Source: Verrucomicrobiota bacterium
Lineage (GTDB): Bacteria; Verrucomicrobiota; Verrucomicrobiia; Chthoniobacterales; UBA10450
Length of the DNA stretch: 64,000 bases
Assembly (NCBI GenBank): GCA_003220155.1
Contig: QHRO01000239.1
Location: forward strand, 22 to 64,021
Reading direction: 5' to 3'
In this document: positions 1 through 15,462 of the stretch, piece after piece
How positions within the stretch are numbered: position 1 is the first letter of the stretch
Layout of the letters: each line of letters opens with the position of its first letter
The notes under the pieces: model-generated
Told to the model about the DNA's origin: nothing
Database searches by the model: none
The model's input: only the letters and a program-made list of their open reading frames with translations
Made by a program: the position numbers and the translations under genes

Positions 1-13
1 CACACTCGGTGTT

Positions 14-598
14 GTGATGTTACTCTGCGGACTCGCGTTTGACGTGCCGCGACATCCCGATCTCATGAGCGCTCCGTGGCGTACCAATGTGCTCGAACCA
101 ATCGCCATTAGCTGCCTGGCGTGGCTCACGCCCGGATTGGGCGGCATTCCGGGATGGCTTGACCGGACGAGCCGCTATCTTCTTGCATTTGCGCTCATCA
201 TCTTTGGCATCGCCCACTTTCAGGTTCTCACCTTCATTGCCAGCATGGTGCCCGGCTGGATTCCCTGGCACTGGTTCTGGACTGTTTTCTTCGGCGTAGC
301 CTTCATCGCCGCGGGCGTAAGCTTCGCCACTGGATTTCTGCAGCGGTGGGCGGCTTTAGGTGTGGGACTGATGTTCGCGCTCTGGACCGTAACAATTCAT
401 CTGCCGCCTGTTCTCAACTTTTTCCGCATCCCCGGCGCAACTCAAGACCCGAACAAGTGGTCGGACGTCTTCATTGTCGTAGCGCTATGGGGAGGCTTCT
501 GGGCGCTGTTGCGCGATAGAAGAGATTTAAGCTTCGGGGCACATTCGAATCGGGCTAACCAGACGTTGCGGCGAACCGCGGACTGTTCACATGCGTAG
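14..598 (+). CDS. DoxX-like integral membrane protein (may be 5' truncated by the window edge)
   Basis: 194-aa ORF with no in-frame stop back to position 2. Four hydrophobic helices (LLAFALIIFGIAHF, FWTVFFGVAFIAAGVSF, LGVGLMFALWTVTI, VFIVVALWGGFWALL). Family call from memory only. Confidence 0.45.
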   Translation: MMLLCGLAFDVPRHPDLMSAPWRTNVLEPIAISCLAWLTPGLGGIPGWLDRTSRYLLAFALIIFGIAHFQVLTFIASMVPGWIPWHWFWTVFFGVAFIAAGVSFATGFLQRWAALGVGLMFALWTVTIHLPPVLNFFRIPGATQDPNKWSDVFIVVALWGGFWALLRDRRDLSFGAHSNRANQTLRRTADCSHA

Positions 599-662
599 GA
601 TTCACACCTTCATGAAAGCCCACTTGCAATTCGCGCGCTGGCTGATCTTTTTCTCGTTAGGG
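553..662 (+). repeat. attC-like site (degenerate)
   Basis: GGCTAAC at 553-559 overlaps the 3' end of the first ORF, and GTTAGGG is at 656-662. CTAACCAG and CTCGTTAG are partly complementary. Confidence 0.3.
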
Positions 663-735
663 GTCAACTGTCGCAGATAAATAGATTCGCAAACCAATCA
701 AGATTTAAGTTTATTTTATTTCAGAGTATCAATAA

Positions 736-1167
736 ATGAACAAAACGAAGTCTAAGCCGGCTGCAGAAGAATCAGAGGCCACACTGCCAGTGGATCTTCG
801 CAAAGCTCTCGCGGCTGCCCCGGTGGCGAAGGCTCAGTGGCGGGATCTTACGCCGATCGCGCGCAGGGATTTTATTAGTTGGATAGACTCGGCCAAACAA
901 CCGGAGACACGTAGACGCAGGATCGAGAAAGCCTGCTCGATGCTTGCGGCTGGAAAGCGACGCCCCTGCTGTTATTCAATAGTGTCATTGAGTCTTTACA
1001 CAGCCCTCGCGGCAACCCCGATGGCGAAGGCTCAGTGGAGCGATCTCACGCCAATCGAGCGCAGGGACTTTATTAGTTGGATAGACTCGGCCAAACAACC
1101 GGAGACACATAGACGCCGGATCGAGAAAGCCTGCTCGATGCTTGCAGCGGGAAAGCGACGCCCCTGA
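736..1167 (+). CDS. YdeI/OmpD-associated family protein, internally duplicated (two tandem domains)
   Basis: The motif AKAQWxDLTPIxRRDFISWIDSAKQPETxRRRIEKACSMLAAGKRRP occurs twice. This matches the C-terminal YdeI/bacteriocin-protection domain as I remember it. Confidence 0.7.
   Translation: MNKTKSKPAAEESEATLPVDLRKALAAAPVAKAQWRDLTPIARRDFISWIDSAKQPETRRRRIEKACSMLAAGKRRPCCYSIVSLSLYTALAATPMAKAQWSDLTPIERRDFISWIDSAKQPETHRRRIEKACSMLAAGKRRP
808..1166 (+). repeat. Tandem direct duplication, period 198 bp
   Basis: 808-968 and 1006-1166 are near-identical. Copy 1 has TGC where copy 2 has the TGA stop. Confidence 0.85.
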
Positions 1168-1531
1168 TGTTTTTCAATCTCTGAAGTGGTCCAATCTCGA
1201 GCAGCCGGAGGGCAACCAAGTGCTCGTCGTATAGGCGCAATTCGGCCGTGTCTTCGTGTATCACAACGGTGCGCAGTCTTACTATAGCGCCAGGGCGTTC
1301 CGTGGCTCGCTAAGGGTCTAGATTTATACCGTGAATTTAGCATTTCTTGAGGTTGGGGAAGTTTGTCGTCTGGAAGAACTGTTTTCAGATCCCTGTCGAT
1401 TGGGAAATCGATGCGCTGCAGCGAACCCAGCACTCTGTTGCGATCACCGACAACATGTGCACCTTAAATGTCAAAGTGCTGGGTCATGATTAAACTATTT
1501 CCAGAGATAGCCAGCCCCGAATGCTTTCGGG

Positions 1532-1614
1532 GCTGAGCTTGAGTTCGTTAAGTGCACTCAGCAGCAGCGACGCTGCAGTGAACCCGTGAGCAGTTGAGCT
1601 TGAGCTCGTTAGGC
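1532..1614 (+). repeat. Two direct copies of an attC right end (L'-R')
   Basis: GCTGAGCTTGAGTTCGTTAAGT (1532-1553) and GTTGAGCTTGAGCTCGTTAGGC (1593-1614), 61 nt apart. The left partners are unclear. Confidence 0.35.
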
Positions 1615-1640
1615 TCTTTTTGTGTAATCCTAGACCACAC

Positions 1641-2318
1641 ATGGGCTTCGATACTGCAGTCAAGTTGACCATCTACACCTTTACGGCTGAATCGGGCCGC
1701 ATTCCGTCAATCCAGGCCGTGGCTCAGCGCGTCCAGACCTCGACCGACGAGGTCGCTCAGGCCTATGCCCGCCTTCGCGCCAGTCGCCTCCTCTTTCTTG
1801 AGCCTGATGGGACTACCATCCGCATGGCTCCGCCATTCTCCGGCGTGCCTACCCAGCATCGCGTTGTCGTCGACGGCATCGAGTACTTTGCTAACTGCGC
1901 ATGGGACGCTCTCGGGATTCCCGCAGCCCTTCATCGTCCGGGAACGGTCCGCTCGCGGTGCGAACAGAGCCACGAACCGCTGAATCTGTCTGTCGGTCTC
2001 ACCGGACCTGAGCCTTCGACGTGGCTCTTTCACTGCCTGGTCCCTGCGGCCAAGTGGTGGGATGATCTGGTCTTTACCTGAAACAATATGCTCTTCTTTC
2101 GGTCGGAAGAACTCATTCGAGAATGGTGCAGGGCCCGAGCGGTCGAGCCCCGACCGATCGTGCGAATGGACCAATTATGGCAGCTGGCAGTGACTTGGTA
2201 TGGCGCCCGGCTCGAGCCCGTCTCCCGTCGCCCGGCAGCCAATGAGATGCGCGAGATCTTCGCCAGGCTCGGCCTGCACGACGCCTTTTGGGATCCCCAG
2301 GCAGACACCTTCCAGTGA
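1641..2318 (+). CDS. MerB-family (alkylmercury-lyase-like) protein with in-frame TGA at 2079-2081: candidate selenocysteine codon, or a nonsense mutation
   Basis: ORFs 1620-2081 and 2088-2318 share one frame. They are separated only by the TGA stop and two sense codons (AAC AAT). YFANCAWDALGIPAAL resembles MerB LYAWCALDTLIFPAL (Cys96/Asp99). VFT-TGA-NNMLFFRSEELIREW resembles MerB SFCCHVHFFASVPTAEDW (Cys159). Confidence 0.6.
2088..2124 (+). promoter_or_regulatory. SECIS-like hairpin downstream of the in-frame UGA
   Basis: Upper stem 2094-2100 (UUCUUUC) pairs with 2105-2111 (GGAAGAA): 7 bp including one G-U. The loop at 2101-2104 is GGUC. The stem starts 12 nt after the UGA. A possible lower stem is AUGCUC (2088-2093) with GAGAAU (2119-2124), which has one mismatch. 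Confidence 0.45.
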
Positions 2319-2325
2319 GAACGCA

Positions 2326-2418
2326 GCCTAACGACACGTATAGAGCGTGAGGTATCTTACTCGACAATGCCTCGCCTCCTCTCAAAGTGCCGGGTCCCTG
2401 GCCTTTTGCTCGTTAGGC
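2326..2418 (+). repeat. attC-like recombination site (93 nt)
   Basis: GCCTAACGA (2326-2334) is perfectly complementary to TCGTTAGGC (2410-2418). It starts 8 nt after the MerB-like stop and ends 11 nt before the next ATG. Confidence 0.6.
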
Positions 2419-2429
2419 ACAAGGGATTT

Positions 2430-2897
2430 ATGAACCAGATAATTGTACTCGCTGCAAATTTGGCGCTGGTCGCAGGGTTCGCTTCGGCGCAACCGGGGTC
2501 ATCAAAACTCGACACAGGAAAGGAATTGGTTGCCCAGCTTTATAAGGAACACTCTGGAAAGTCCGACCCATTGCAGTACCCAGCCAGCAAGAAACTACTT
2601 CCAAACTATTTTTACAAACCGCTCCTTGACCTCTATCTTAAGGACCAAGAGGACTCAAAAGGCGAAGTAGGTAAGATCGACTTCGACCCCCTCTACAATG
2701 CGCAGGATTTTGAAATCTCGGCTTTCAAGCTGGTCGTGCTCCCTAATAAAAAAGGCTCAGCGTACGTGGCCGCCCGATTTAAGAATATAGGGGTCGACCA
2801 AGAGATCATCTTCGCACTTCAGCGAACGAAAATGGGATGGCGCATCGCTGACATTCAATACCAGGACGGGCGTTCGCTTTGGAAAATATTGAAGTGA
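2430..2897 (+). CDS. Secreted DUF3828-like protein
   Basis: Signal peptide MNQIIVLAANLALVAGFASAQ. Contains DFDPLYNAQDF and a C-terminal GWRIADIQ motif. The start was moved from 2367 to the ATG at 2430, because the upstream codons lie inside the attC site. Confidence 0.55.
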   Translation: MNQIIVLAANLALVAGFASAQPGSSKLDTGKELVAQLYKEHSGKSDPLQYPASKKLLPNYFYKPLLDLYLKDQEDSKGEVGKIDFDPLYNAQDFEISAFKLVVLPNKKGSAYVAARFKNIGVDQEIIFALQRTKMGWRIADIQYQDGRSLWKILK

Positions 2898-2907
2898 TAG
2901 GGCTTGT

Positions 2908-2985
2908 GCCTAACAACGCGCTTCAGTCAACGTCACGCCGCCGCTGCGCGTCGGTGTGGGAGCGGCTGAGCTTCGTACGTTAGAC
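2908..2985 (+). repeat. attC-like recombination site (78 nt)
   Basis: GCCTAAC (2908-2914) and GTTAGAC (2979-2985). Internal arms CTTCAGTC/GGCTGAGC and CACGCCGCC/GTCGGTGTG give an imperfect palindrome along the whole length, with unpaired bases. Confidence 0.65.
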
Positions 2986-2998
2986 GTTTCCCTTTCTC

Positions 2999-3493
2999 AT
3001 GAAACGACACTTCTTCTTGTCCGCCGCTCTCGTTGCCCTGCTCGTCATTGCCGAGGTAGCACTTGCGTCTGATGTGGCAGTTTCATCGCAGGCATCAAAA
3101 GATGAGCAAACCATCTGGGAACTTGAGCGGGCATATTGGCGCTACGTTCAGGAAAATGATTTGTCGGCCTATTCCGGCCTGTGGCACAAGGATTTTCTGG
3201 GCTGGCCGTCAGTCAGTGCCGCGCCCGTTCACAAAGACCACATTACAGACTGGATTACCTCGCAAACCAGTAAGGGACTGGCGTTCAAGACCGGTGAATT
3301 CAAACCCGCCTCGATTCAGGTTACTGAGGACATCGCGGTCGCATGTTACTGGATAACGTTTAAGTGGCTGGACAAGGATGGCAATGGAGCGGCGAATACC
3401 ATCCGTATCACGCACGCGTGGCGCAGGACCGGAAACGATTGGCGCATTATAGGTGGAATGTCCATGCCGGAACCCGACACTCCCCGCAATTAA
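2999..3493 (+). CDS. Secreted NTF2-like (DUF4440/SnoaL-like) protein
   Basis: Signal peptide MKRHFFLSAALVALLVIAEVALA. Pattern WELERAYWRYVQENDLSAYSGLWHKDF. Confidence 0.6.
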   Translation: MKRHFFLSAALVALLVIAEVALASDVAVSSQASKDEQTIWELERAYWRYVQENDLSAYSGLWHKDFLGWPSVSAAPVHKDHITDWITSQTSKGLAFKTGEFKPASIQVTEDIAVACYWITFKWLDKDGNGAANTIRITHAWRRTGNDWRIIGGMSMPEPDTPRN

Positions 3494-3683
3494 TATCACA
3501 ATGAGAAGGCCTAAAAAGGCGCCGCAGCCAACTCCAAAAGCCAGGTTTATACTGACCTCCGAACTTCTATTCTCTGATCTCTCATTTTATGCTCGCTGTC
3601 GGTAGCAGTAGCTGATCTTGTTTTTCATTGAGCCATTTTCCAGACCATCCAATCAGTTTTAACGAACAGCAAGAAAGAACATT

Positions 3684-4436
3684 ATGACAAAGACGCGCAT
3701 CCCGCTGCTTTTGGTTTTGCTTGGTTTAGCTGGTAACAACCAGTTTGTCCGCGCCGCCGATCCGGATCACGCCGACCAACCAATCGTTCCTCCCACTGAA
3801 GCGATCTCCCGGCTCAAACAGGGCAATGGACGTTACACCAAAGGCAAACCGCAGCATCCACATGAGTCGATCAACGAAAGAACACGGTTGGCAACCAACA
3901 GCTATGAAAATGCGAGCTTGATCTATCCGGACATGACAAAGCGGCGCGAGGAGCTGGCAAAAAGTCAGCATCCGTTTGCTGTCGTTCTTGGCTGCTCTGA
4001 CTCGCGTGTCCCGCCTGAGATCGTGTTCGATCAAGGGCTGGGCGATCTATTTGTCCTGCGCGTGGCCGGCAACGTGATCGACGATCACAGCCTGGGCAGC
4101 ATCGAGTACGCGGTCGATCATCTGTCCGTGCGCCTGATCGTGGTGCTCGGACATCAGCGCTGCGGCGCGGTCAAGGCTGCGAAGGAGACGATCGCTGCCA
4201 AAGGCGAGGCACCCGCTCATATCCAGTCGCTGGTCACGGCGATCCAACCAGCGGTTGAAGCGACAGTCCAAGGCGACCTCGAGACGACGGTGCGTGAGAA
4301 CGTAAAGAATGTCGTGCAAGCATTACGTTCATCCGCGCCGGTTCTCAAAGCCAAGGTTGATTCCGGTGAGCTCAAGGTGGTCGGTGCTTATTACAGTCTC
4401 GATACCGGGTCGGTCGCTTTCCCGGAAGAAAAGTAA
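3684..4436 (+). CDS. Beta-class carbonic anhydrase, secreted
   Basis: Zinc-ligand motifs GCSDSRVPPE and GHQRCGAV, plus an N-terminal signal peptide. Confidence 0.9.
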   Translation: MTKTRIPLLLVLLGLAGNNQFVRAADPDHADQPIVPPTEAISRLKQGNGRYTKGKPQHPHESINERTRLATNSYENASLIYPDMTKRREELAKSQHPFAVVLGCSDSRVPPEIVFDQGLGDLFVLRVAGNVIDDHSLGSIEYAVDHLSVRLIVVLGHQRCGAVKAAKETIAAKGEAPAHIQSLVTAIQPAVEATVQGDLETTVRENVKNVVQALRSSAPVLKAKVDSGELKVVGAYYSLDTGSVAFPEEK

Positions 4437-4593
4437 ACCGTTCACAAAAGCGTAAAGCCATGAGCATCGATAGAACTGAAATCATCACGTGGATTCTGTT
4501 GATGAGCGCGGTGCTCACAGTATTCGCCCTCGTCAAGCTGAGACGAGCAACCCGATGCCACGCTGTAACGCTATGACGCTCGGCGCTTATCCT

Positions 4594-4600
4594 CGTTAGG
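4594..4600 (+). repeat. GTTAGGC core site upstream of a small ORF
   Basis: CCTCGTTAGGC lies 10 nt before the ATG at 4611. A possible short partner is CTGTAACG at 4563-4570, but that span is too short for a normal attC. Confidence 0.3.
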
Positions 4601-4610
4601 CCTTCTTCAT

Positions 4611-4832
4611 ATGAAGCTAACCAATAACAGCTATACCATCTCGATCGGCACCAAGAATTTCACTGAGCGTTATTACCGCGACAAGGCCGGTTGGTTAAAG
4701 GTGAGCGCGCGCGGCCGAACGTTCCGGATGACGGCGGAGCAGATTCTGAATCATGTCCTGCCTGCGGTAGCCGGCGTTAAACCGAACCTGACCATTAAAG
4801 TGGAACATCGCGACGCAACTCTTTCAAAATGA
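4611..4832 (+). CDS. Hypothetical small protein (73 aa)
   Basis: ORF directly after a GTTAGGC core. No family recognised. Confidence 0.35.
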   Translation: MKLTNNSYTISIGTKNFTERYYRDKAGWLKVSARGRTFRMTAEQILNHVLPAVAGVKPNLTIKVEHRDATLSK

Positions 4833-4960
4833 ACGGCGCCTCTGCGAACCAGCGCATGCACGACCTCGTGAAGTCGTCCTACGCTGACCTCAACTCTCAC
4901 GGGTGGGCGCAGGCAGTGAGTTACACGACTGAGGACTGGGTCACATCAACTCGACCCCAA
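4829..4960 (+). pseudogene. Truncated N-terminal remnant of an SgcJ/EcaC-type NTF2-like gene
   Basis: HDLVKSSYADLNSHGWAQAVSYTTEDWV parallels VREVVKAFVANYNNGDFKNAPTYTTDDWV of the 5866-6297 gene. HIN follows in a shifted frame, then homology stops at the DUF4239 gene. Confidence 0.45.
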
Positions 4961-4985
4961 AGTGCAGGTCGAAATTACGACATGT

Positions 4986-5765
4986 ATGCAATTTCTACTT
5001 AATTTGCCGTCAGCGATCTCATTTCTGATTGTCTCGGTTATTACCACCGCGGTCGCACTAGCCGGACTTCGGTTTGTGCGGAAGAAATATTCGACCGAAG
5101 CGTTGAAAGAGAACCACGAAGTAGCAGCGATAATCTTCAATGCGTTCGGCCTGCTTTACGGGGTAGTCGTCGCTTTTGTGGTGTTTGTTACCTGGAGTGG
5201 ATATGACGACGCCACCAAGAATCTGCAATTGGAAGCCAACGAGATCGATGATATTTTTCACATCTCGAAAGCATTCCCTAGCCCTGTCAATAAAATTATA
5301 CAGCAAGGATTAATAGATTATACCGCCTCCGTTTATAATGATGAGCTGAAAAGAATGTCACAGGGCGACGTAAATCTTCATTCCAACCGAGCGATGGCGA
5401 GGCTTATTACGGTGTTTTACGGAATAGATGAGAAATCGATTTCCAACAATGAGCTGTATGCCGAATCACTGAAGCGAATAAATAACCTCGCTCAGTACCG
5501 CCGACTCAGAATATTTGCAGGCAAGAACGAGGTGCCACCTGTGATCTGGTTAGTCCTACTTGTTGGCGGGACGATCACAGTTTCATACGCCTTTTTCTTT
5601 GGAATGAAGAACATAAAGGCGCAGTACATGATTACGGCCGCGCTCACGGTAACGATCACGTTGATTTTATTTCTGATATATATTCTTGACCATCCCTTTA
5701 CAGGGACAAGCAAAGTTAGTACGGAGCCTTTGAAACAGGTGATGGAGATAGTGCAGAAAGAATGA
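4986..5765 (+). CDS. DUF4239-family membrane protein
   Basis: N-terminal TM helix, AAIIFNAFGLLYGVVVAFVVFVTWSGYDDA, and two C-terminal TM helices. The start was chosen at the ATG at 4986. Confidence 0.55.
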   Translation: MQFLLNLPSAISFLIVSVITTAVALAGLRFVRKKYSTEALKENHEVAAIIFNAFGLLYGVVVAFVVFVTWSGYDDATKNLQLEANEIDDIFHISKAFPSPVNKIIQQGLIDYTASVYNDELKRMSQGDVNLHSNRAMARLITVFYGIDEKSISNNELYAESLKRINNLAQYRRLRIFAGKNEVPPVIWLVLLVGGTITVSYAFFFGMKNIKAQYMITAALTVTITLILFLIYILDHPFTGTSKVSTEPLKQVMEIVQKE

Positions 5766-5865
5766 GGGCAACGCGTCTCCGTGCCTGTTAAAATTTCCCT
5801 GGATCGGTGTTCTGTGATGACCATCAAAGGATAAAATTGCGAAGCTTCTTCTGTCCGCAGCTGGC

Positions 5866-6297
5866 TTGCTATGTCTGCTTGGGGTTGCATGGGGCGCTGA
5901 CGATGAACAGCTAGTGCGAGAAGTCGTGAAGGCCTTCGTCGCTAATTACAACAACGGAGATTTTAAGAACGCACCTACATATACAACCGATGACTGGGTG
6001 CATATCAATCCGGGAGGCGGAATTACGAGAGGACGAGATGAAGGTCTTAAAGAGGTAAGAGCCATTCACAAGACCATGTTAAAGGGAGTCTCAATCACGA
6101 TCGACAACGTGACGGTTCACTTTGTAACGCCTGACGTCGCCTTGGTTGATGCAGTTCATACGAGCGATAGTTACGTAACGCCGGAAGATGGTGTGAAGCA
6201 CGAGAACGAAAGGCAGATAAAGACCTACTTGATAGTAAAGCGCAATGGCAAGTGGTTGTTGGTGCTTGACCAGAACACCATCATTTCCAATCCATGA
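5866..6297 (+). CDS. SgcJ/EcaC-family NTF2-like protein
   Basis: TDDWVHINPGGG ... NGKWLLVLDQNT. The hydrophobic leader continues upstream with no canonical start, so the start is uncertain. Confidence 0.65.
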   Translation: MLCLLGVAWGADDEQLVREVVKAFVANYNNGDFKNAPTYTTDDWVHINPGGGITRGRDEGLKEVRAIHKTMLKGVSITIDNVTVHFVTPDVALVDAVHTSDSYVTPEDGVKHENERQIKTYLIVKRNGKWLLVLDQNTIISNP

Positions 6298-6314
6298 ACG
6301 GTGTTCTGGGAGGA

Positions 6315-6424
6315 GGCCAACAGGATCGCTGGCCGGGTCAAGACATCGACAACATGACTACTGACCACAGACCACGAAGTATGCTCGCTTTCGCCGGCGG
6401 TAGCTGAGCTCCGTCTCGCTAGGC
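6315..6424 (+). repeat. attC-like site (degenerate)
   Basis: GGCCAAC at 6315-6321, 18 nt after the stop. GCTGAGCTCCGTCTCGCTAGGC ends at 6424, 11 nt before the next ATG. Confidence 0.3.
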
Positions 6425-6435
6425 GAAATTCCATT

Positions 6436-6863
6436 ATGGCTCTCCTGTCTCATCTTGATGCCTTTTGCAATTGGCTCCGCACTCGTGTACGCGCGCATGT
6501 TTCCATTGGAAGACCTGATAAGGCACTTACCGGTATATACGTTTTGCCATGGTACGCGGTGCCGAATCTACAAAAGCGAAATATGCCTCGGATGCCTGGC
6601 CTCGAGGAAACTGTTGGTGACTTTGAGGCGCAAACCTTCGACATCCACTTTCTGCTATGGCGACGCCTGCCGACACTGTTGAAGCGTTCGCGAGCTTGGA
6701 AGCCGCACAACAGGCGATCCATGATAATCCTATCTTGATCTTGAATGCCGCTGGCGCACAGCTCAAGGTGATAGCAGAGCAAGTCCCCAACGGTGATCTG
6801 GCAGCCATATTTACGGCCGCGAGGCTGGAGCTAACTATTTGCTTAGCTTATGTGTTGAGGTGA
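6436..6863 (+). pseudogene. DUF4255 (Pvc16 N-terminal domain)-like gene, frameshifted near 6652
   Basis: Frame 1 gives IGRPDKALTGIYVLPWYAVPNLQKRN...FDIHFLLW. Frame 0 continues TPADTVEAFASLEAAQQAIHDNPILI. Together these resemble DUF4255 as I remember it. Confidence 0.4.
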
Positions 6864-7052
6864 CGTATTTTCTCAGGCTAACGCCATGCCGCTTAGAGGC
6901 GGGTACAGCGAACTCCTGGCCGGCGCAAACGTCGCCGTCTTGCTCTGTCTTAGAACTGATCCCCGTGGCTGGAGGCACTGGGATGCTTTACCTCACGCGC
7001 CGCAAGAAGTTGAGCATGTCGCCAAGGTCCGCGGCGAGTTCGTGGGAAGTAC

Positions 7053-8426
7053 ATGCTGATGGCTTGCACTTCCTTGAAGCTGGCAGGGTGGGTTATTGCC
7101 GCTGCTATCGTTTTCGGCAGCGTCGGATGTAACCGATCGCGCGAGGACGCGCATGCGCGCGAAGTCGCAACCCGGGTTCGCACTGAGTTTCTGCATGCGT
7201 GGACTAATTACGAGAAGTACGCCTGGGGACATGATGCGTTAAAGCCGCTGAGCAAGACGCCGCAAGATTGGTACGGCCAATCGCTGCTGATGACGCCGGT
7301 CGATGCCTTGGACACGCTCATCCTGATGAAGCTGGATAAGGAAGCCGCGAAGGCGAAAGAGCTCATCGTGAAGAATCTTTCGTTCGATCGCGACGTTTAC
7401 GTCAAGAATTTCGAAATCACCATCCGTTTGCTCGGTGGCTTGCTCTCGAGTTATCAACTAACGAATGATAAACAACTGCTCGATCTGGCTGACGATTTAG
7501 GCAATCGGCTGTTAGCCGTTTTCAATTCGCCTACGGCACTTCCTTACGTTTACGTGAATCTGAAAACCGGCCAGGTTCGCGATGCGAAAACGAACCCGGC
7601 CGAGACGGGGACGCTGTTGCTGGAATTCGGGACGCTGAGCAAACTAACCGGTAAACCGATCTACTACGAAAAAGCCAAGCGTGCTTTGGTGGAGACATTC
7701 AAGCGCCGCTCGTCGATCGGTCTGGTTGGCTCGACCATCAACGTCGAGACCGGTGGGTGGATGGATGCAGATAGTCACATCAGTGGCGGAATCGATTCTT
7801 ACTACGAATATCTCTGGAAATGCTGGCTCTTATTCGGCGACAAAGATTGTCAGAAGATGTGGCACGCGAGCATTCCCGCGGTTAACAAATATCTTGCCGA
7901 CGAAGTCCGTGGCGAATTGTGGTACGGCCACGCCGACATGAACACAGGCAGGCTCACTGCATCGCAATATGGCGCGCTCGACGCTTTCTTTCCGGCTGTG
8001 CTGACGCACTCCGGCGACGTCGCGCGGGCGCGGCGACTCCAGGATTCATCGTTCAAAATGTGGAACATGCACGGGATCGAACCGGAGATCATCGATTACA
8101 AAACGATGCAGATTGTTTACAACGGCTACCATCTGCGTCCCGAGATCGTGGAATCGACCTATTATCTGCATCACTTCACACACGATCCGCGATACCGAAA
8201 GACGGGAGAGAAGATCTTCGAGGACTTTGTGAAATATTGCCGGGTGGATGCTGGCTACACCGCGCTTCAGGATGTGGTCACGAAAGCAAAGCGCGATGAA
8301 ATGGAAAGCTTCGTCCTGGCCGAGACCTTCAAATACCTTTATCTTCTCTTCGCTCCGCCGGATACTTTGGATTTCGACAAAGTCGTGTTCAATACTGAGG
8401 CGCACCCTTTGAGGCGAACGGATTGA
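7053..8426 (+). CDS. Glycoside hydrolase family 47 (class I alpha-1,2-mannosidase-like) lipoprotein
   Basis: EFLHAWTNYEKYAWGHDALKPLS, FEITIRLLGGLLSSY, ETGTLLLEFGTLSKLTG, ESFVLAETFKYLYLLF. Lipobox GSVGC. Confidence 0.8.
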   Translation: MLMACTSLKLAGWVIAAAIVFGSVGCNRSREDAHAREVATRVRTEFLHAWTNYEKYAWGHDALKPLSKTPQDWYGQSLLMTPVDALDTLILMKLDKEAAKAKELIVKNLSFDRDVYVKNFEITIRLLGGLLSSYQLTNDKQLLDLADDLGNRLLAVFNSPTALPYVYVNLKTGQVRDAKTNPAETGTLLLEFGTLSKLTGKPIYYEKAKRALVETFKRRSSIGLVGSTINVETGGWMDADSHISGGIDSYYEYLWKCWLLFGDKDCQKMWHASIPAVNKYLADEVRGELWYGHADMNTGRLTASQYGALDAFFPAVLTHSGDVARARRLQDSSFKMWNMHGIEPEIIDYKTMQIVYNGYHLRPEIVESTYYLHHFTHDPRYRKTGEKIFEDFVKYCRVDAGYTALQDVVTKAKRDEMESFVLAETFKYLYLLFAPPDTLDFDKVVFNTEAHPLRRTD

Positions 8427-8459: not shown

Positions 8460-8945
8460 ATGCAAGTATCGCGTTATTTATCATTGATTCTGCTCGGAAT
8501 GATTCTGGATAGTTGTTCTGAGCGACAGTTCGATTCCAAAACCGAAGGGGAAAAATTGTTGGCCAGGGACGCAGAATGGGCGGATCTCGCCACGGCAGGC
8601 AAGGATATCGAAAAGGTTGTCTCTTACTGGAGCGATGATGCTGTCCTCATTTTCCCGGGACAGCCTGTGCTCGAGGGCAAGGCGGCGATTCGTGCTTACG
8701 TTGCCGCCAGCTTTGATACCCCCGGATTCAAGATCCATTGGGTCTCGCAAAAACCTGTATTCTCCCCCGATGGCAAGCTTGCCTATATGCGCGGGACGGA
8801 CGAGCTCACTCTGCCTGGGCTAAATGGCGGTACGATGACGCTGCACCTTCGTGGAATATCGGTCTGGCGTTTGGATCCGGATAAGCAATGGCGCTGCGTC
8901 CTGGATATTTCAAATGAGGCACCGCCTACTAGCCCGAGCTCTTAG
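8460..8945 (+). CDS. NTF2-like (DUF4440) lipoprotein
   Basis: Lipobox LDSC. LLARDAEWADLATAGKDIEKVVSYWSDDAVLIFPGQP. Confidence 0.6.
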   Translation: MQVSRYLSLILLGMILDSCSERQFDSKTEGEKLLARDAEWADLATAGKDIEKVVSYWSDDAVLIFPGQPVLEGKAAIRAYVAASFDTPGFKIHWVSQKPVFSPDGKLAYMRGTDELTLPGLNGGTMTLHLRGISVWRLDPDKQWRCVLDISNEAPPTSPSS

Positions 8946-14104: not shown

Positions 14105-15462
14105 ATGTCCCGACTGACCGCCTGCTTGATTCTATTCGTCATCTGGGCCTTGATTTACCTTACCAACCTGGGGTCGTCCGAGTTCCGCAGTGAAGAAGGT
14201 CATCGCGTCCTGCCTGCGGTTCAGACGCTCGATAAGTAGCAACTACTGGCCCCCTACATTGCGGCACGGCCGTATTTTGAATAAGCCGCCGTTGCTTAAT
14301 TGGATTGTCGCTGCCTCGTTTAAGCTTTCCGGAGTTCGCAACGAATGGACCGCGCGTCTGCCATCGGCATTATTCACTCTGGCCGTCGCCCTTACCCTGG
14401 CGACGGTCGGACGAATCAGCCTTGGCCCAATCGGTTCCTTCATCGCACCACTCTGCTGGCTAACGAATCTTGGACTGCTCTCATTCTGTGGTTGCTGCTC
14501 TGGGAACAAAAGCGCTCACCCTGGCTTACCTTCGTCGTGTCCTGGATCTTTCTTGGTTAGGCCTGCTGGCGAAAGGTCCAAGTCACGTCCTGTTCTTTTA
14601 TCTTATCGTTGGCGCCGTTCTCTGGCGAAATCGTCACCTCCGCGACCTAACTCATCCGGCGCACTTCATTGGAGTCGTGGTAATGCTCGGAATTTTGTGA
14701 CCTGGCTGATTCCGTACTTTCGGGCGTTACCTTCTCGGTCGCCTTTACAAGCCTGGTCACGAGAAGCGGCGGTCGCATTTCACGGCGAAGAAGGCGAATC
14801 AGAGGATTGGTTACTAAACTTCCCCCGCGGCTTCGCCTATCTACTTCCCTGGGTACTACTTCTCCCGTTTATTCGATTGAGTAAAATAACGGACCCATTA
14901 CAGCGCAACGTAGCTTATGGATTAGCATGGGGGAGCATTATTCCATTTGTTATTGTTCTTCTGACTTCCGGAACACTCCCAAGATATATTTTGCCCTTGG
15001 AAGCACCATTTTGCTGGACCGTCGGAAGCGCTGTCGCTAATGGAGCCTCGCAATGGAGTATTAAAGGCATTCGAGTTCCGCAGGGGCCTAATCTTCTCCT
15101 TTGTCGCGATAGGCATTGTTGCGGCGATGATAATCTTTCCGCTGCGTTCCGTGACCTATTTAAAGAGGCACGAGCGAATTAAACCGATTGCCGGAGAAAT
15201 TAACGCGCTCCTCCCGTCTGAGCAACGGCTTTACGCAATCGACCCTGACTTTCAGCCGTATCTCTTTTATGTCCGCGCGCCTATAACCTACCTCACTACC
15301 TTGGGCGAATTACCAGCGGATGCGCATTATTTTTTATTTCAGCTCAGGCATCAACGAAAATTCGAAAGCAACCCGCGATGGGCGACCTTGCGACCGAAAC
15401 TCCTGGCTCATATATCGAGCTATCGTAACAAAGAAAGCTTGCTTTTCGCCATCGAGCACTGA
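14105..15462 (+). pseudogene. GT39/ArnT-like glycosyltransferase, multiple frameshifts and stops
   Basis: Pieces in three frames: MSRLTACLILFVIWALIYLTNLGSSEFRSEEGHRVLPA, then NYWPPTLRHGRILNKPPLLNWIVAASFKL, then GLLAKGPSHVLFFYLIVGAVLW, then LLPWVLLLPF...GTLPRYILPLEAPF, then RLYAIDPDFQPYLFYV. Confidence 0.6.

Follow-up and report, generated by a model that had tools for sequence, protein, structure and literature searches.

A series of about ten short ORFs, all on the plus strand and with attC-type sites between them, occupies positions 1-7031 of the window (the whole stretch of 64,000 nucleotides that was analysed) and raises the question of whether these functionally unrelated genes are the cassettes of an integron. 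The original prediction had described the series and read it as an integron-type cassette array of a non-proteobacterial lineage. Both points were borne out: the ORFs belong to diverse Pfam families, with three orphans in the Pfam search, the host is a member of the Verrucomicrobiota, and neither the attC model, nor the motif distribution, nor the integrases of relatives refuted the integron reading. The stretch very probably forms the distal end of a sedentary chromosomal integron's cassette array, carried by a soil Verrucomicrobium of the Chthoniobacterales near 'Candidatus Udaeobacter' (Table 1). Integron cassette arrays are a well-known kind of element and, since relatives carry a matching integron integrase, that of the window is genuine but ordinary.

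Table 1. Features of the array and of its right-hand flank (CM, covariance model)
Feature	Position	Strand	Details
DoxX-like membrane protein gene, 3' part	1-598	+	Cassette ORF; window begins inside
attC of DoxX cassette, partly decayed	553-662	+	R'' GGCTAAC, R' GTTAGGG; CM 34.6 bits, E 2e-6
OmdA/YdeI-like cassette ORF	736-1167	+	PF13376 matched twice, E 2e-41
Long decayed attC of OmdA cassette	1399-1553	+	R'' lost; R' GTTAAGT at 1547-1553
attC 3' half, GTTGAGCTTGAGCTC-GTTAGGC, without own ORF	1567-1614	+	Repeat families D2 and D9
MerB-like cassette ORF, selenocysteine candidate	1641-2318	+	In-frame TGA at 2079-2081
attC, perfect R box (GCCTAAC / GTTAGGC), L box lost	2326-2418	+	CM 17.4 bits, E 0.03
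DUF3828-like secreted protein, cassette ORF	2430-2897	+	Weak PF12883 match, E 0.0014
Best-preserved attC	2908-2985	+	R'' GCCTAAC, L'' GCT[T]CAG[T]C, L' GCTGAGC, R' GTTAGAC; CM 29 bits, E 5e-5
DUF4440/SnoaL-like (NTF2 fold) cassette ORF	2999-3493	+	PF14534, E 9e-12
Decayed attC, GCCTAAA ... GCTGATCTTGTTTTTC-ATTGAGC	3509-3633	+	CM 16.6 bits, E 0.047
Beta-carbonic anhydrase (Pro_CA) cassette ORF	3684-4436	+	PF00484, E 2e-44
attC 3' half ending GTTAGGC (4595-4601)	4562-4601	+	Repeat family D2; CM only 6.5 bits
Orphan ORF, 73 aa	4611-4832	+	No Pfam match; gene call in L113
PF14023 membrane protein	4986-5765	+	PF14023, E 2e-50; start from L113 gene call
Second DUF4440/SnoaL-like ORF	5866-6297	+	PF14534, E 2e-10
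attC, 5' arm mostly deleted, 3' arm GCTGAGCTCCGTCTC-GCTAGGC	6316-6424	+	CM 28.1 bits, E 8e-5
Last cassette, overlapping orphan ORFs 6436-6738 and 6657-6863	6436-6863	+	No Pfam match
Terminal decayed attC (GGCTAAC ... ACAGCGAAC ... GTTGAGCATGTCGCC)	6875-7031	+	Read by eye
GH47 glycosidase gene, conserved right-hand chromosomal flank, outside array	7053-8426	+	PF01532, E 2e-124

A lineage-specific attC covariance model, trained solely on sites of related genomes and on no window sequence, bore out the expected attC matches by finding five in the window at E<0.05 (the sites with an E value of this model in Table 1), all on the plus strand and all between ORFs, and none at E<1 in the other 57 kb (7-64 kb). 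A sequence-only nhmmer profile from the relatives concurred, adding 1409-1553, with its matches confined to the array region; the 20-nt L'-R' end was recovered independently by a repeat search as a five-copy family (D2). The degenerate GTTRRRY was not enriched in the window (71 found, 89 expected) and GTTAGGC was unremarkable across it (7 copies, 4.2 expected). Five of the seven GTTAGGC copies lie within 1608-4601 with the correct polarity, minus-strand copies standing directly past stop codons and plus-strand copies 9-26 nt upstream of start codons.

The pairing of the attC family is upheld by compensatory changes across 24 related sites from other genomes, with both-sided changes in 14 of the 24 pairs of the alignment and a covariation score of 0.342 against 0.121 in shuffles, none of 500 reaching the former value. 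The R''/R' and L''/L' structure is paired in 90% of the cells, a percentage inflated by the choice of the training sites partly for arm complementarity; sliding the 3' partner by 1-3 columns leaves 21-41% paired. The R''/L'' arm has an invariant unpaired base: an A stands there in 23 of 23 relatives' sites, hence a T on the bottom strand. The family sites are hairpins of 90-128 nt that combine R and L boxes with unpaired bases, and their consensus spans about 120 nt (GCCTAAC-CA..CG-aTGgAGCgAAC ... GcT.A.C-TTgtTCTC-GTTAGGC). Related array loci hold 65 clustered matches in 360 kb, all on the cassette strand, against 11 in 467 kb of other loci of the same clade; with the remainder of the window free of it as well, the motif shows no REP-like spread over the sequences scanned.

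No integrase was found in the window by tblastn with IntI1 and the IntI of the relative L013 (best E 0.057), nor in the closest contigs over the 1.4-4.7 kb that extend leftwards from the position of the window; the genes there encode a lipase, a repeat protein and, on the opposite strand, a MocR-type regulator, and no attC separates them from DoxX. Integron integrases were found in relatives. In L013 the orthologous DoxX cassette has an intI 4.2 kb upstream, on the side to which the original prediction had pointed; this intI is divergently oriented, the canonical layout, and reaches 465 bits on TIGR02249 (cut-off 265). GTTAGGT follows intI, 2 nt before the first ORF, and cassette/attC units then run to the DoxX cassette. 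Aligned with IntI1 over 314 residues, this IntI shows 53% identity and no gap, the stretch ALERK...RRHH included, and the integrase type has 8000 homologues at E<=1e-30, many labelled 'integron integrase' by JGI. In L119 an intI of this type stands beside at least 17 attC sites in 10 kb, scoring up to 115 bits. Gene and array diverge in L013 and L119, and in L011 intI reads in the direction of the DoxX-bearing array. A sister genome has the same DoxX-like cassette flanked by the attC family of the window, next to a true integron integrase.

The DoxX-like gene, whose own Pfam match is weak (E 0.009, under Pfam's cut-off), recurs as a cassette across many MAGs of Chthoniobacterales / 'Candidatus Udaeobacter'. 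Its homologue, 82-96% identical in nucleotides, stands behind an attC R' core in six related genomes (L011, L013, L014, L016, L022 and L029) and in front of an attC or an attC remnant in several, including L009, L010, L013, L016, L026 and L106. Homology to more than 20 genomes ends at the DoxX attC, and divergence between genomes starts directly past G|TTAGGN. The OmdA cassette precedes DoxX in L019 and follows it in the window and in L028; within its ORF, 198 nt are duplicated in tandem (785-980 and 983-1178, repeat family D1), the single-copy form being of 77 aa in L116 and L117. An Imm-NTF2-2 cassette with an 80-bit attC lies immediately left of DoxX in L116, and L106 has one cassette followed by an AcrB-type gene. 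In L026 a far shorter and different cassette set, with a homologue of the carbonic anhydrase (43% identical) in the cassette after DoxX, separates DoxX from the same GH47 flank; the GH47 gene is 85% identical in nucleotides, and homology to that flank begins at 7032, the right end of the array. On the sequences compared, cassette content and order vary among genomes, with breakpoints at the R' core.

It is possible, if rather doubtful, that the window holds a true orphan attC cluster, its integrase cut off by rearrangement or its intI lost, and that the array is a purely decaying fossil. Most population contigs have the repeat protein left of DoxX, with no attC between and with DoxX homology beginning exactly at the start codon, and in most other genomes the repeat-protein gene stands in non-array contexts; however, the 3' end of an attC occurs further left in L106, which matches this left flank at 90% identity, and in L116, whose array shows ~98.5-98.8% nucleotide identity to the window (99% for the MerB N-terminal protein), intact attC sites (39 and 80 bits) directly adjoin DoxX on its left. 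The lack of intI in 64 kb, the decay of the window sites and the location of the homologous stretch of L011 on the 3' side of intI, not the attI side, would suit an orphan cluster, but IntI genes of the L013-type family are very common in the same soils. Clusters of attC sites without an integron integrase (CALIN) are, moreover, still mobilisable in trans (Cury et al. 2016, PMC4889954). The orphan cluster is a sub-case of the main explanation rather than an alternative to it.

The reading of the palindromes as generic extragenic repeats (REP/BIME-like) or transcription terminators that resemble attC cores by accident is extremely improbable and already largely refuted: the sites are imperfect intergenic palindromes, two 3' ends were flagged terminator-like and GTTRRRY is not enriched, but neither are terminator-like sites (9 found, 7.3 expected), and zero copies in the other 57 kb, the strict single-strand polarity (65/65 in relatives), the physical linkage to integron integrases and the gene-content breakpoints at the core site all oppose it. 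Hardly any credence can be given either to modules of another site-specific system, such as Xer/dif-like elements or a tyrosine-recombinase shufflon, since the short inverted repeats around single genes are hairpins built of R and L boxes plus unpaired bases and measure 90-128 nt, whereas dif sites have 28 nt, and all share one orientation. The relatives' tyrosine recombinase, although related to XerC/D, reaches 465 bits on the integron-integrase model; on XerC/D it gets 131-137 bits, far under the cut-offs of those models.

As the far end of a sedentary chromosomal integron, the stretch looks distal and partly fossilised, because its sites score 17-35 bits against 50-115 in relatives and several are reduced to 3' halves; the original prediction had missed that most of them are decayed. 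Between 3 and 7 of the 7 R-box pairs survive per site, and 1-11 of the 17 in the L box. With most sites lacking pairing or a whole arm, most cassettes have probably lost their mobility and are becoming fixed among the ordinary genes of the chromosome; 2908-2985 is the one site that looks usable, with 2326-2418 and 553-662 as further possibilities. By the established integron mechanism, the unit would be a promoterless ORF with an attC behind it, which would fold as a single-stranded hairpin with R box, L box and unpaired bases. An IntI-family tyrosine recombinase would cut the R' core between G and TT, and the cassette, excised as a circle, would be reinserted normally at the attI adjoining intI. 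The integrase of the window genome, if kept, would lie beyond the left edge of the window.

Individual sites differ in what they keep. The DoxX site (nhmmer E 7e-11) retains 5/7 R-box and 10/17 L-box pairs, and between-genome homology stops at its R' core; the sequence at 553-559 is off RYYYAAC at base 2, and the core predicted at 656-662 exists with a final base outside GTTRRRY. The OmdA site covers profile positions 9-121 in nhmmer (E 1.4e-3), and its interior GAACCCAGCAC...GTGCTGGGTC matches an attC subfamily found before DoxX in L013, L015 and L016. The 3' half at 1567-1614 reaches only 5.3 bits with the covariance model (nhmmer E 0.37). Site 2326-2418 has the architecture originally described, GCCTAACGA (2326-2334) pairing with TCGTTAGGC (2410-2418), and keeps 7/7 R-box and 1/17 L-box pairs; the ATG of the DUF3828-like ORF is 11 nt past its R' core. 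At 2908-2985 the claimed GCCTAAC (2908-2914) and GTTAGAC (2979-2985) were read directly, with 6/7 R-box pairs and an L box with two unpaired bases on the R''/L'' arm. Bottom-strand folding of these two sites gave the R''/R' pairing (the 9-nt ends at 2326-2418), but the energies were no better than shuffled (z -1.19 and +0.61). Site 3509-3633 (nhmmer E 4.6e-5) keeps 5/7 R-box and 9/17 L-box pairs.

The right-hand core motifs that had been listed are present, one of them misplaced by a nucleotide: the core given as 4594-4600 is at 4595-4601, 9 nt upstream of the next ATG. The one at 6418-6424 exists as GCTAGGC, without GTT, in a site with 3/7 R-box pairs (nhmmer E 3.5e-8). The recurrent GCTGAGCT or GTTGAGCT does precede the cores at 1547, 1608, 2979 and 6418. 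At the ORF boundaries 4832/4986 and 5765/5866, around PF14023, neither the covariance model nor nhmmer gave any attC trace; the gene between them had been announced as DUF4239, and the family is right, its Pfam name here being 'Bestrophin-like'. The terminal site gave no significant model match, and GGCTAAC (6875-6881) was confirmed after the stop codon at 6861-6863.

Among the closest known systems are the sedentary chromosomal integrons, such as those of Vibrio cholerae (superintegron/VCR), Xanthomonas, Pseudomonas stutzeri and Treponema denticola. The likeness lies in the chromosomal location, the long arrays (in relatives such as L119), attC sites alike within the lineage through the shared consensus, cassettes whose functions are mostly unknown or miscellaneous and among which no resistance gene is recognisable, and an IntI-family integrase divergent from the array (L013 and L119). 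In contrast, the host here is a Chthoniobacterales Verrucomicrobium whose attC family has its own consensus, the window stretch has decayed sites and boundaries without a site, non-cassette genes (lipase, MocR-type regulator) occur in or beside the array in some relatives, and intI can share the orientation of the DoxX-bearing array (L011). IntegronFinder's rules would class the visible stretch as a CALIN, with at least two attC sites on one strand, at most 4 kb apart, and intI not nearby; that class is operational and implies no mechanism, and in sister genomes orthologues of the cassettes are linked to intI. Class 1 mobile integrons (IntI1, 59-base-element attC) resemble the system in the identity of the relatives' integrase to IntI1, in core sites that fit RYYYAAC / GTTRRRY and in the unpaired bases on the R''/L'' arm, but the array here is not on a transposon or plasmid, has no resistance cassettes, and its attC sites are longer and homogeneous. 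The bottom strand of the aadA7 attC site has a G at the first unpaired base, whereas this base is variable in the Chthoniobacterales family.

The cargo includes, as had been claimed, a well-supported selenocysteine candidate in the MerB-like cassette. The MerB Pfam profile was matched on both sides of the in-frame TGA, which aligned with the catalytic Cys of MerB2 (PDB 5c17), and the TGA and the downstream ORF are kept in homologues 71-76% identical.

The first 7031 nucleotides of the window are a member of the integron cassette arrays, among which the sedentary chromosomal integrons are nearest to it. Short ORFs, all on the plus strand, follow one another in series across this stretch, and the attC sites lie in one orientation at the 3' ends of single ORFs. 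Sites were located with a covariance model derived from 24 attC sites of relatives, none taken from the window, and run with its filters off; being lineage-specific, it stands in for the attC models of HattCI and IntegronFinder, the latter a general one. The original prediction, which claimed an integron array, is borne out by five matches to this model in the window (E 2e-6 to 0.047), all intergenic, on the plus strand and spaced 0.5-2.7 kb apart. They are corroborated by a profile built on this alignment from sequence alone, which also joins 1409-1553 as one long decayed site (E 1.4e-3).

Genes and attC sites of window 1-7031 (positions in the window; bit scores from the lineage-specific covariance model)
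Feature	Position	Strand	Remarks
DoxX-like membrane protein		+	window starts inside gene; weak Pfam match
OmdA/YdeI protein		+	internal 198-nt tandem duplication; Pfam
MerB-like protein	1641-2318	+	in-frame TGA at 2079-2081; Pfam
DUF3828-like protein		+	weak Pfam match
DUF4440/SnoaL (NTF2-fold) proteins		+	two in array; Pfam
Beta-carbonic anhydrase		+	Pfam
PF14023 membrane protein		+	DUF4239 in the original prediction; Pfam
Orphan ORFs		+	three in array
attC	553-662	+	34.6 bits; cores one base off
attC	1399-1553		core degenerate or missing
attC remnant	1567-1614		3' half
attC	2326-2418	+	17.4 bits; perfect R box only
attC	2908-2985	+	29.0 bits; R''/R' exact, both boxes and two unpaired bases kept
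attC	3509-3633	+	16.6 bits; core degenerate or missing
attC remnant	4562-4601		3' half; core degenerate or missing
attC	6316-6424	+	28.1 bits; core degenerate or missing
attC remnant	6875-7031		recognisable by eye alone; core degenerate or missing

The motifs first quoted for this stretch are present in its sequence, with four small corrections: the core placed at 4594-4600 lies at 4595-4601, and the cores at 656-662 and 6418-6424 and the inverse core at 553-559 read GTTAGGG, GCTAGGC and GGCTAAC, respectively. Over the whole window the degenerate GTTRRRY consensus is not enriched (71 seen, 89 expected) and the count of GTTAGGC is unremarkable (7 against 4.2 expected). Five of these seven copies lie within 1608-4601, those on the minus strand just after stop codons and those on the plus strand 9-26 nt before start codons, and a repeat search independently yielded a five-copy family (D2) that corresponds to the last 20 nt of the sites. 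The R' cores of the window are located 9-26 nt upstream of start codons (73 nt for OmdA) and the R'' cores 8-19 nt downstream of stop codons, the R'' at 553-559 falling inside the listed ORF 14-598. Complementary RYYYAAC and GTTRRRY ends are exact at 2326-2418 and 2908-2985. No attC trace was found at the boundaries 4832/4986 and 5765/5866. Promoter-like sites and terminators occur in the window at background level, the former without enrichment, and Rfam gave no match there at gathering thresholds; single-site folding-energy z-scores (-1.5 to +0.9) were uninformative, with the exception of a hairpin in 1490-1620. Two candidates were discarded: ORF 1331-1489, which overlies a decayed attC, is considered spurious, and the pair 14458-14562, from a simple scan, is regarded as a chance match, having reached only 7.2 bits with the model, on the other strand. 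The tandem copies that double the OmdA/YdeI domain occupy 785-980 and 983-1178 and are 88% identical. Since a single-copy form of 77 aa is carried by L117 and by L116, a contig close to the window, the duplication is polymorphic in the population; BLAST points to a single copy in two further loci, L115 and L031, too.

In the relatives, the structure scored has an R box of 7 bp, separated by a gap from an L box of 17 bp that is interrupted on its 5' (R''/L'') arm by two unpaired columns. The 24 sites were chosen partly by arm complementarity, which inflates the proportion of paired cells, 90% as compared with 21-41% when the partner was slid by 1-3 columns. Such a choice creates no compensatory changes in a fixed register, and both-sided changes were present in 14 of the 24 base pairs, 12 of them belonging to the L box. 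The covariation score was 0.342, compared with 0.121 in shuffled alignments, and was matched by none of 500 shuffles. The four central pairs of the R box are invariant, with 94% of its cells paired. Of the two unpaired columns, one shows A without exception (23 of 23 sites), hence T on the bottom strand, and the other is variable (G, C or A). Published attC sites carry unpaired bases on this same arm. What is conserved as a structure in the relatives is an imperfect hairpin with an L''/L' stem and extrahelical bases. In the window the full hairpin is found at 2908-2985 alone; the other sites keep 1-11 of the 17 L-box pairs, the R box retains 3-7 of 7, and scores are 17-35 bits versus 50-115 bits in relatives. 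Judged from these site sequences, the window stretch would be the old, integrase-distal end of an array with eroding sites.

A dispersed repeat of the REP type, distributed independently of ORF boundaries, was the alternative raised with the original prediction. It is ruled out by the scarcity of model matches outside arrays and by their single-strand polarity: 65 matches were obtained at array loci of relatives, all on the cassette strand, just 11 in other loci of this clade (467 kb), and none with E<1 in the remaining 57 kb of the window.

Genomes differ in cassette content and order, and the junctions fall at the G|TT of R'; such differences in presence, absence or order from the window were observed in L019, L026, L028, L106, L116 and L013. 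The full-length DoxX-like protein, searched against species-representative genomes, gave 24 loci (66-96% protein identity), nearly all from MAGs of Verrucomicrobiota, Chthoniobacterales or 'Candidatus Udaeobacter', the closest being that of Verrucomicrobia bacterium AV114 (96% nucleotide identity over 812 nt). Nucleotide homology of the window to more than 20 genomes ends at the DoxX attC, and 3' of G|TTAGGN the genomes carry different sequences. The OmdA cassette is located 3' of DoxX in the window and in L028, and 5' of DoxX, with an attC between them, in L019. The relative L026 shares the GH47 flank with the window (homology from 7032), but its cassette set is shorter and different; L106 has a single cassette followed by an AcrB-type gene. 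On the left, two types of flank exist in the population of the window, namely a repeat-protein gene without attC (the contig L001 and others) and an Imm-NTF2-2 cassette between attC sites of 39 and 80 bits (L116). The window itself is a mosaic: its DoxX segment (1-560) is 94.6-96.8% identical to population contigs, and 560-7100 is 99-100% identical to L001, L002, L003 and L113, the switch occurring near 450-560, just upstream of the attC. L005 and L006 were rejected as strain variants with a different neighbour, since in the alignment their arrangement matches and only the gene call differs. At 8460-8945, just past GH47, there is a third DUF4440/SnoaL-like gene, outside the array and without attC trace.

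An integron integrase, which the original prediction expected in the genome or its relatives, was found upstream of the orthologous DoxX gene in the MAG locus L013 and beside an attC array in a second MAG locus, L119. In L013 (CAVRYN010000005.1) a gene of 328 aa, on the strand opposite to the DoxX orthologue, is found 4.2 kb upstream of the latter. The protein it encodes is an integron integrase, with a TIGR02249 score of 465 bits (cut-off 265) versus 131-137 bits on XerC/D. A gap-free alignment with IntI1 (53% identity), of which the NCBIfam score is independent, covers both the stretch specific to IntI and the catalytic motifs. A GTTAGGT, 72 nt away from the start of intI, precedes the first cassette ORF by 2 nt, and downstream of this motif comes a run of ORF-plus-palindrome units; the DoxX gene has a palindrome before it and a truncated one after it. 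GTTAGGC occurs eight times in this locus (1.1 expected), seven of them on the plus strand. Homologues of this integrase are very common in soil data (8000 at E<=1e-30), the top 120 being 73-91% identical and many of them labelled 'integron integrase' by JGI. Two such loci were read, L119 and L120, neither of the lineage of the window; L119, part of a 573-kb MAG contig, has the same integrase and, within 10 kb, at least 17 divergently oriented attC sites. The orientation of intI is not constant: it diverges from the DoxX-bearing array in L013 (4787-5851) and is on the same strand in L011 (2-626), where the array lies on its 3' side, and in L119 (10001-18268) the lipase/MocR block found elsewhere to the left of DoxX is on the intI 3' side, away from the main array; either an inversion or a second array next to intI may account for these differences. 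A tRNA-like stretch next to the L011 intI was not a tRNA gene by ARAGORN. Within the L013 array, broken ORFs on the minus strand between two attC cores (7180-8270) look like a degraded insertion sequence.

For the genome of the window, no intI adjoins the array in the 64 kb or in the 1.4-4.7 kb of left flank present in the closest contigs. Short contigs from soil metagenomes (up to 5.7 kb), found by exact-protein matches, share the gene order of the window, and contigs extending to the left carry the repeat protein, a lipase and, on the opposite strand, a MocR-type regulator. The 3' end of another attC appears further left in L106, and in L011 the repeat-protein/MocR/lipase block follows the intI 3' end and an attC. 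When metagenomes were scanned with the repeat protein, the best 80 loci were nearly all non-array contexts without intI. This protein (L001 3-899, L106 3131-4375, L032-L110) has recurring '...G..HG(F/L/I)' units and no Pfam match, and is very common in soil metagenomes: of the first 600 pattern matches, 505 proved to be relatives, with 81-99% identity in the best 80; divergent paralogues (about 28-35% identity) occur as cassette-like genes upstream of DoxX in L009, L011, L017 and L026. A 56-nt palindrome (ACTCAAC...GTTGAGC) at L001 851-906, also present in L003 and L007, fits RYYYAAC/GTTRRRY and overlaps the repeat-protein stop codon; it is not recognised by the attC model and may be a terminator or a chance match.

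The term CALIN (Cury et al. 2016, PMC4889954) covers attC sites that number two or more, cluster within 4 kb and have no intI close by, and the window stretch agrees with this operational definition, its leftward surroundings being covered in part, through related contigs. The results place a well-defined chromosomal integron family in Chthoniobacterales and 'Candidatus Udaeobacter', very abundant uncultured soil bacteria, with a homogeneous attC consensus of its own and a widely shared DoxX-like cassette; the literature searched contained no link between Udaeobacter and integrons. Its sites form a natural gradation, the strong ones reaching 115 bits and the decayed ones scoring 17-35 bits or surviving as halves, which could be of use for studying the loss of cassette mobility. 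The value of the family lies in annotation and in surveys of the soil mobilome, and knowledge of integrons is unchanged by it. Verrucomicrobia are already listed among the integron-bearing phyla (PMC4889954), and public pipelines already label the integrase homologues.

The in-frame TGA of the MerB-like gene aligns with the catalytic Cys of MerB2 (PDB 5c17). That the gene encodes a real selenoprotein of an uncatalogued clade, with UGA at the catalytic-Cys position, is a tentative reading to which slightly less than an even chance is given. The TGA and the frame downstream are kept in two homologous loci, L111 (10037-10702) and L112 (10013-10681), down to about 71% identity, and in both loci the 75-76 codons beyond the TGA show a conservation (72%) equal to that of the part before it. 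For more than 100 homologue clusters (70-99% identity) the called protein is 146-156 aa long and ends at this same codon. From 12 nt downstream of the UGA the sequence can form a hairpin with a loop of GGUC, which is also paired in the L111 and L112 homologues; its folding energy is not significant, and its conservation could be explained by coding constraints. A family of MerB-like selenoproteins with a C-U motif, SaoL, is already catalogued; the window protein has a T-U context and falls below the NCBIfam cut-offs of both SaoL and MerB. If it is a selenoprotein, the product of an integron cassette would rely on the selenocysteine machinery of the host and, with the graded attC decay, the locus would record cassettes becoming fixed chromosomal genes in a lineage that ranks among the most abundant in soil. 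Trp (TGG) occupies the UGA position in one full-length relative, and a Cys lies nearby in two.
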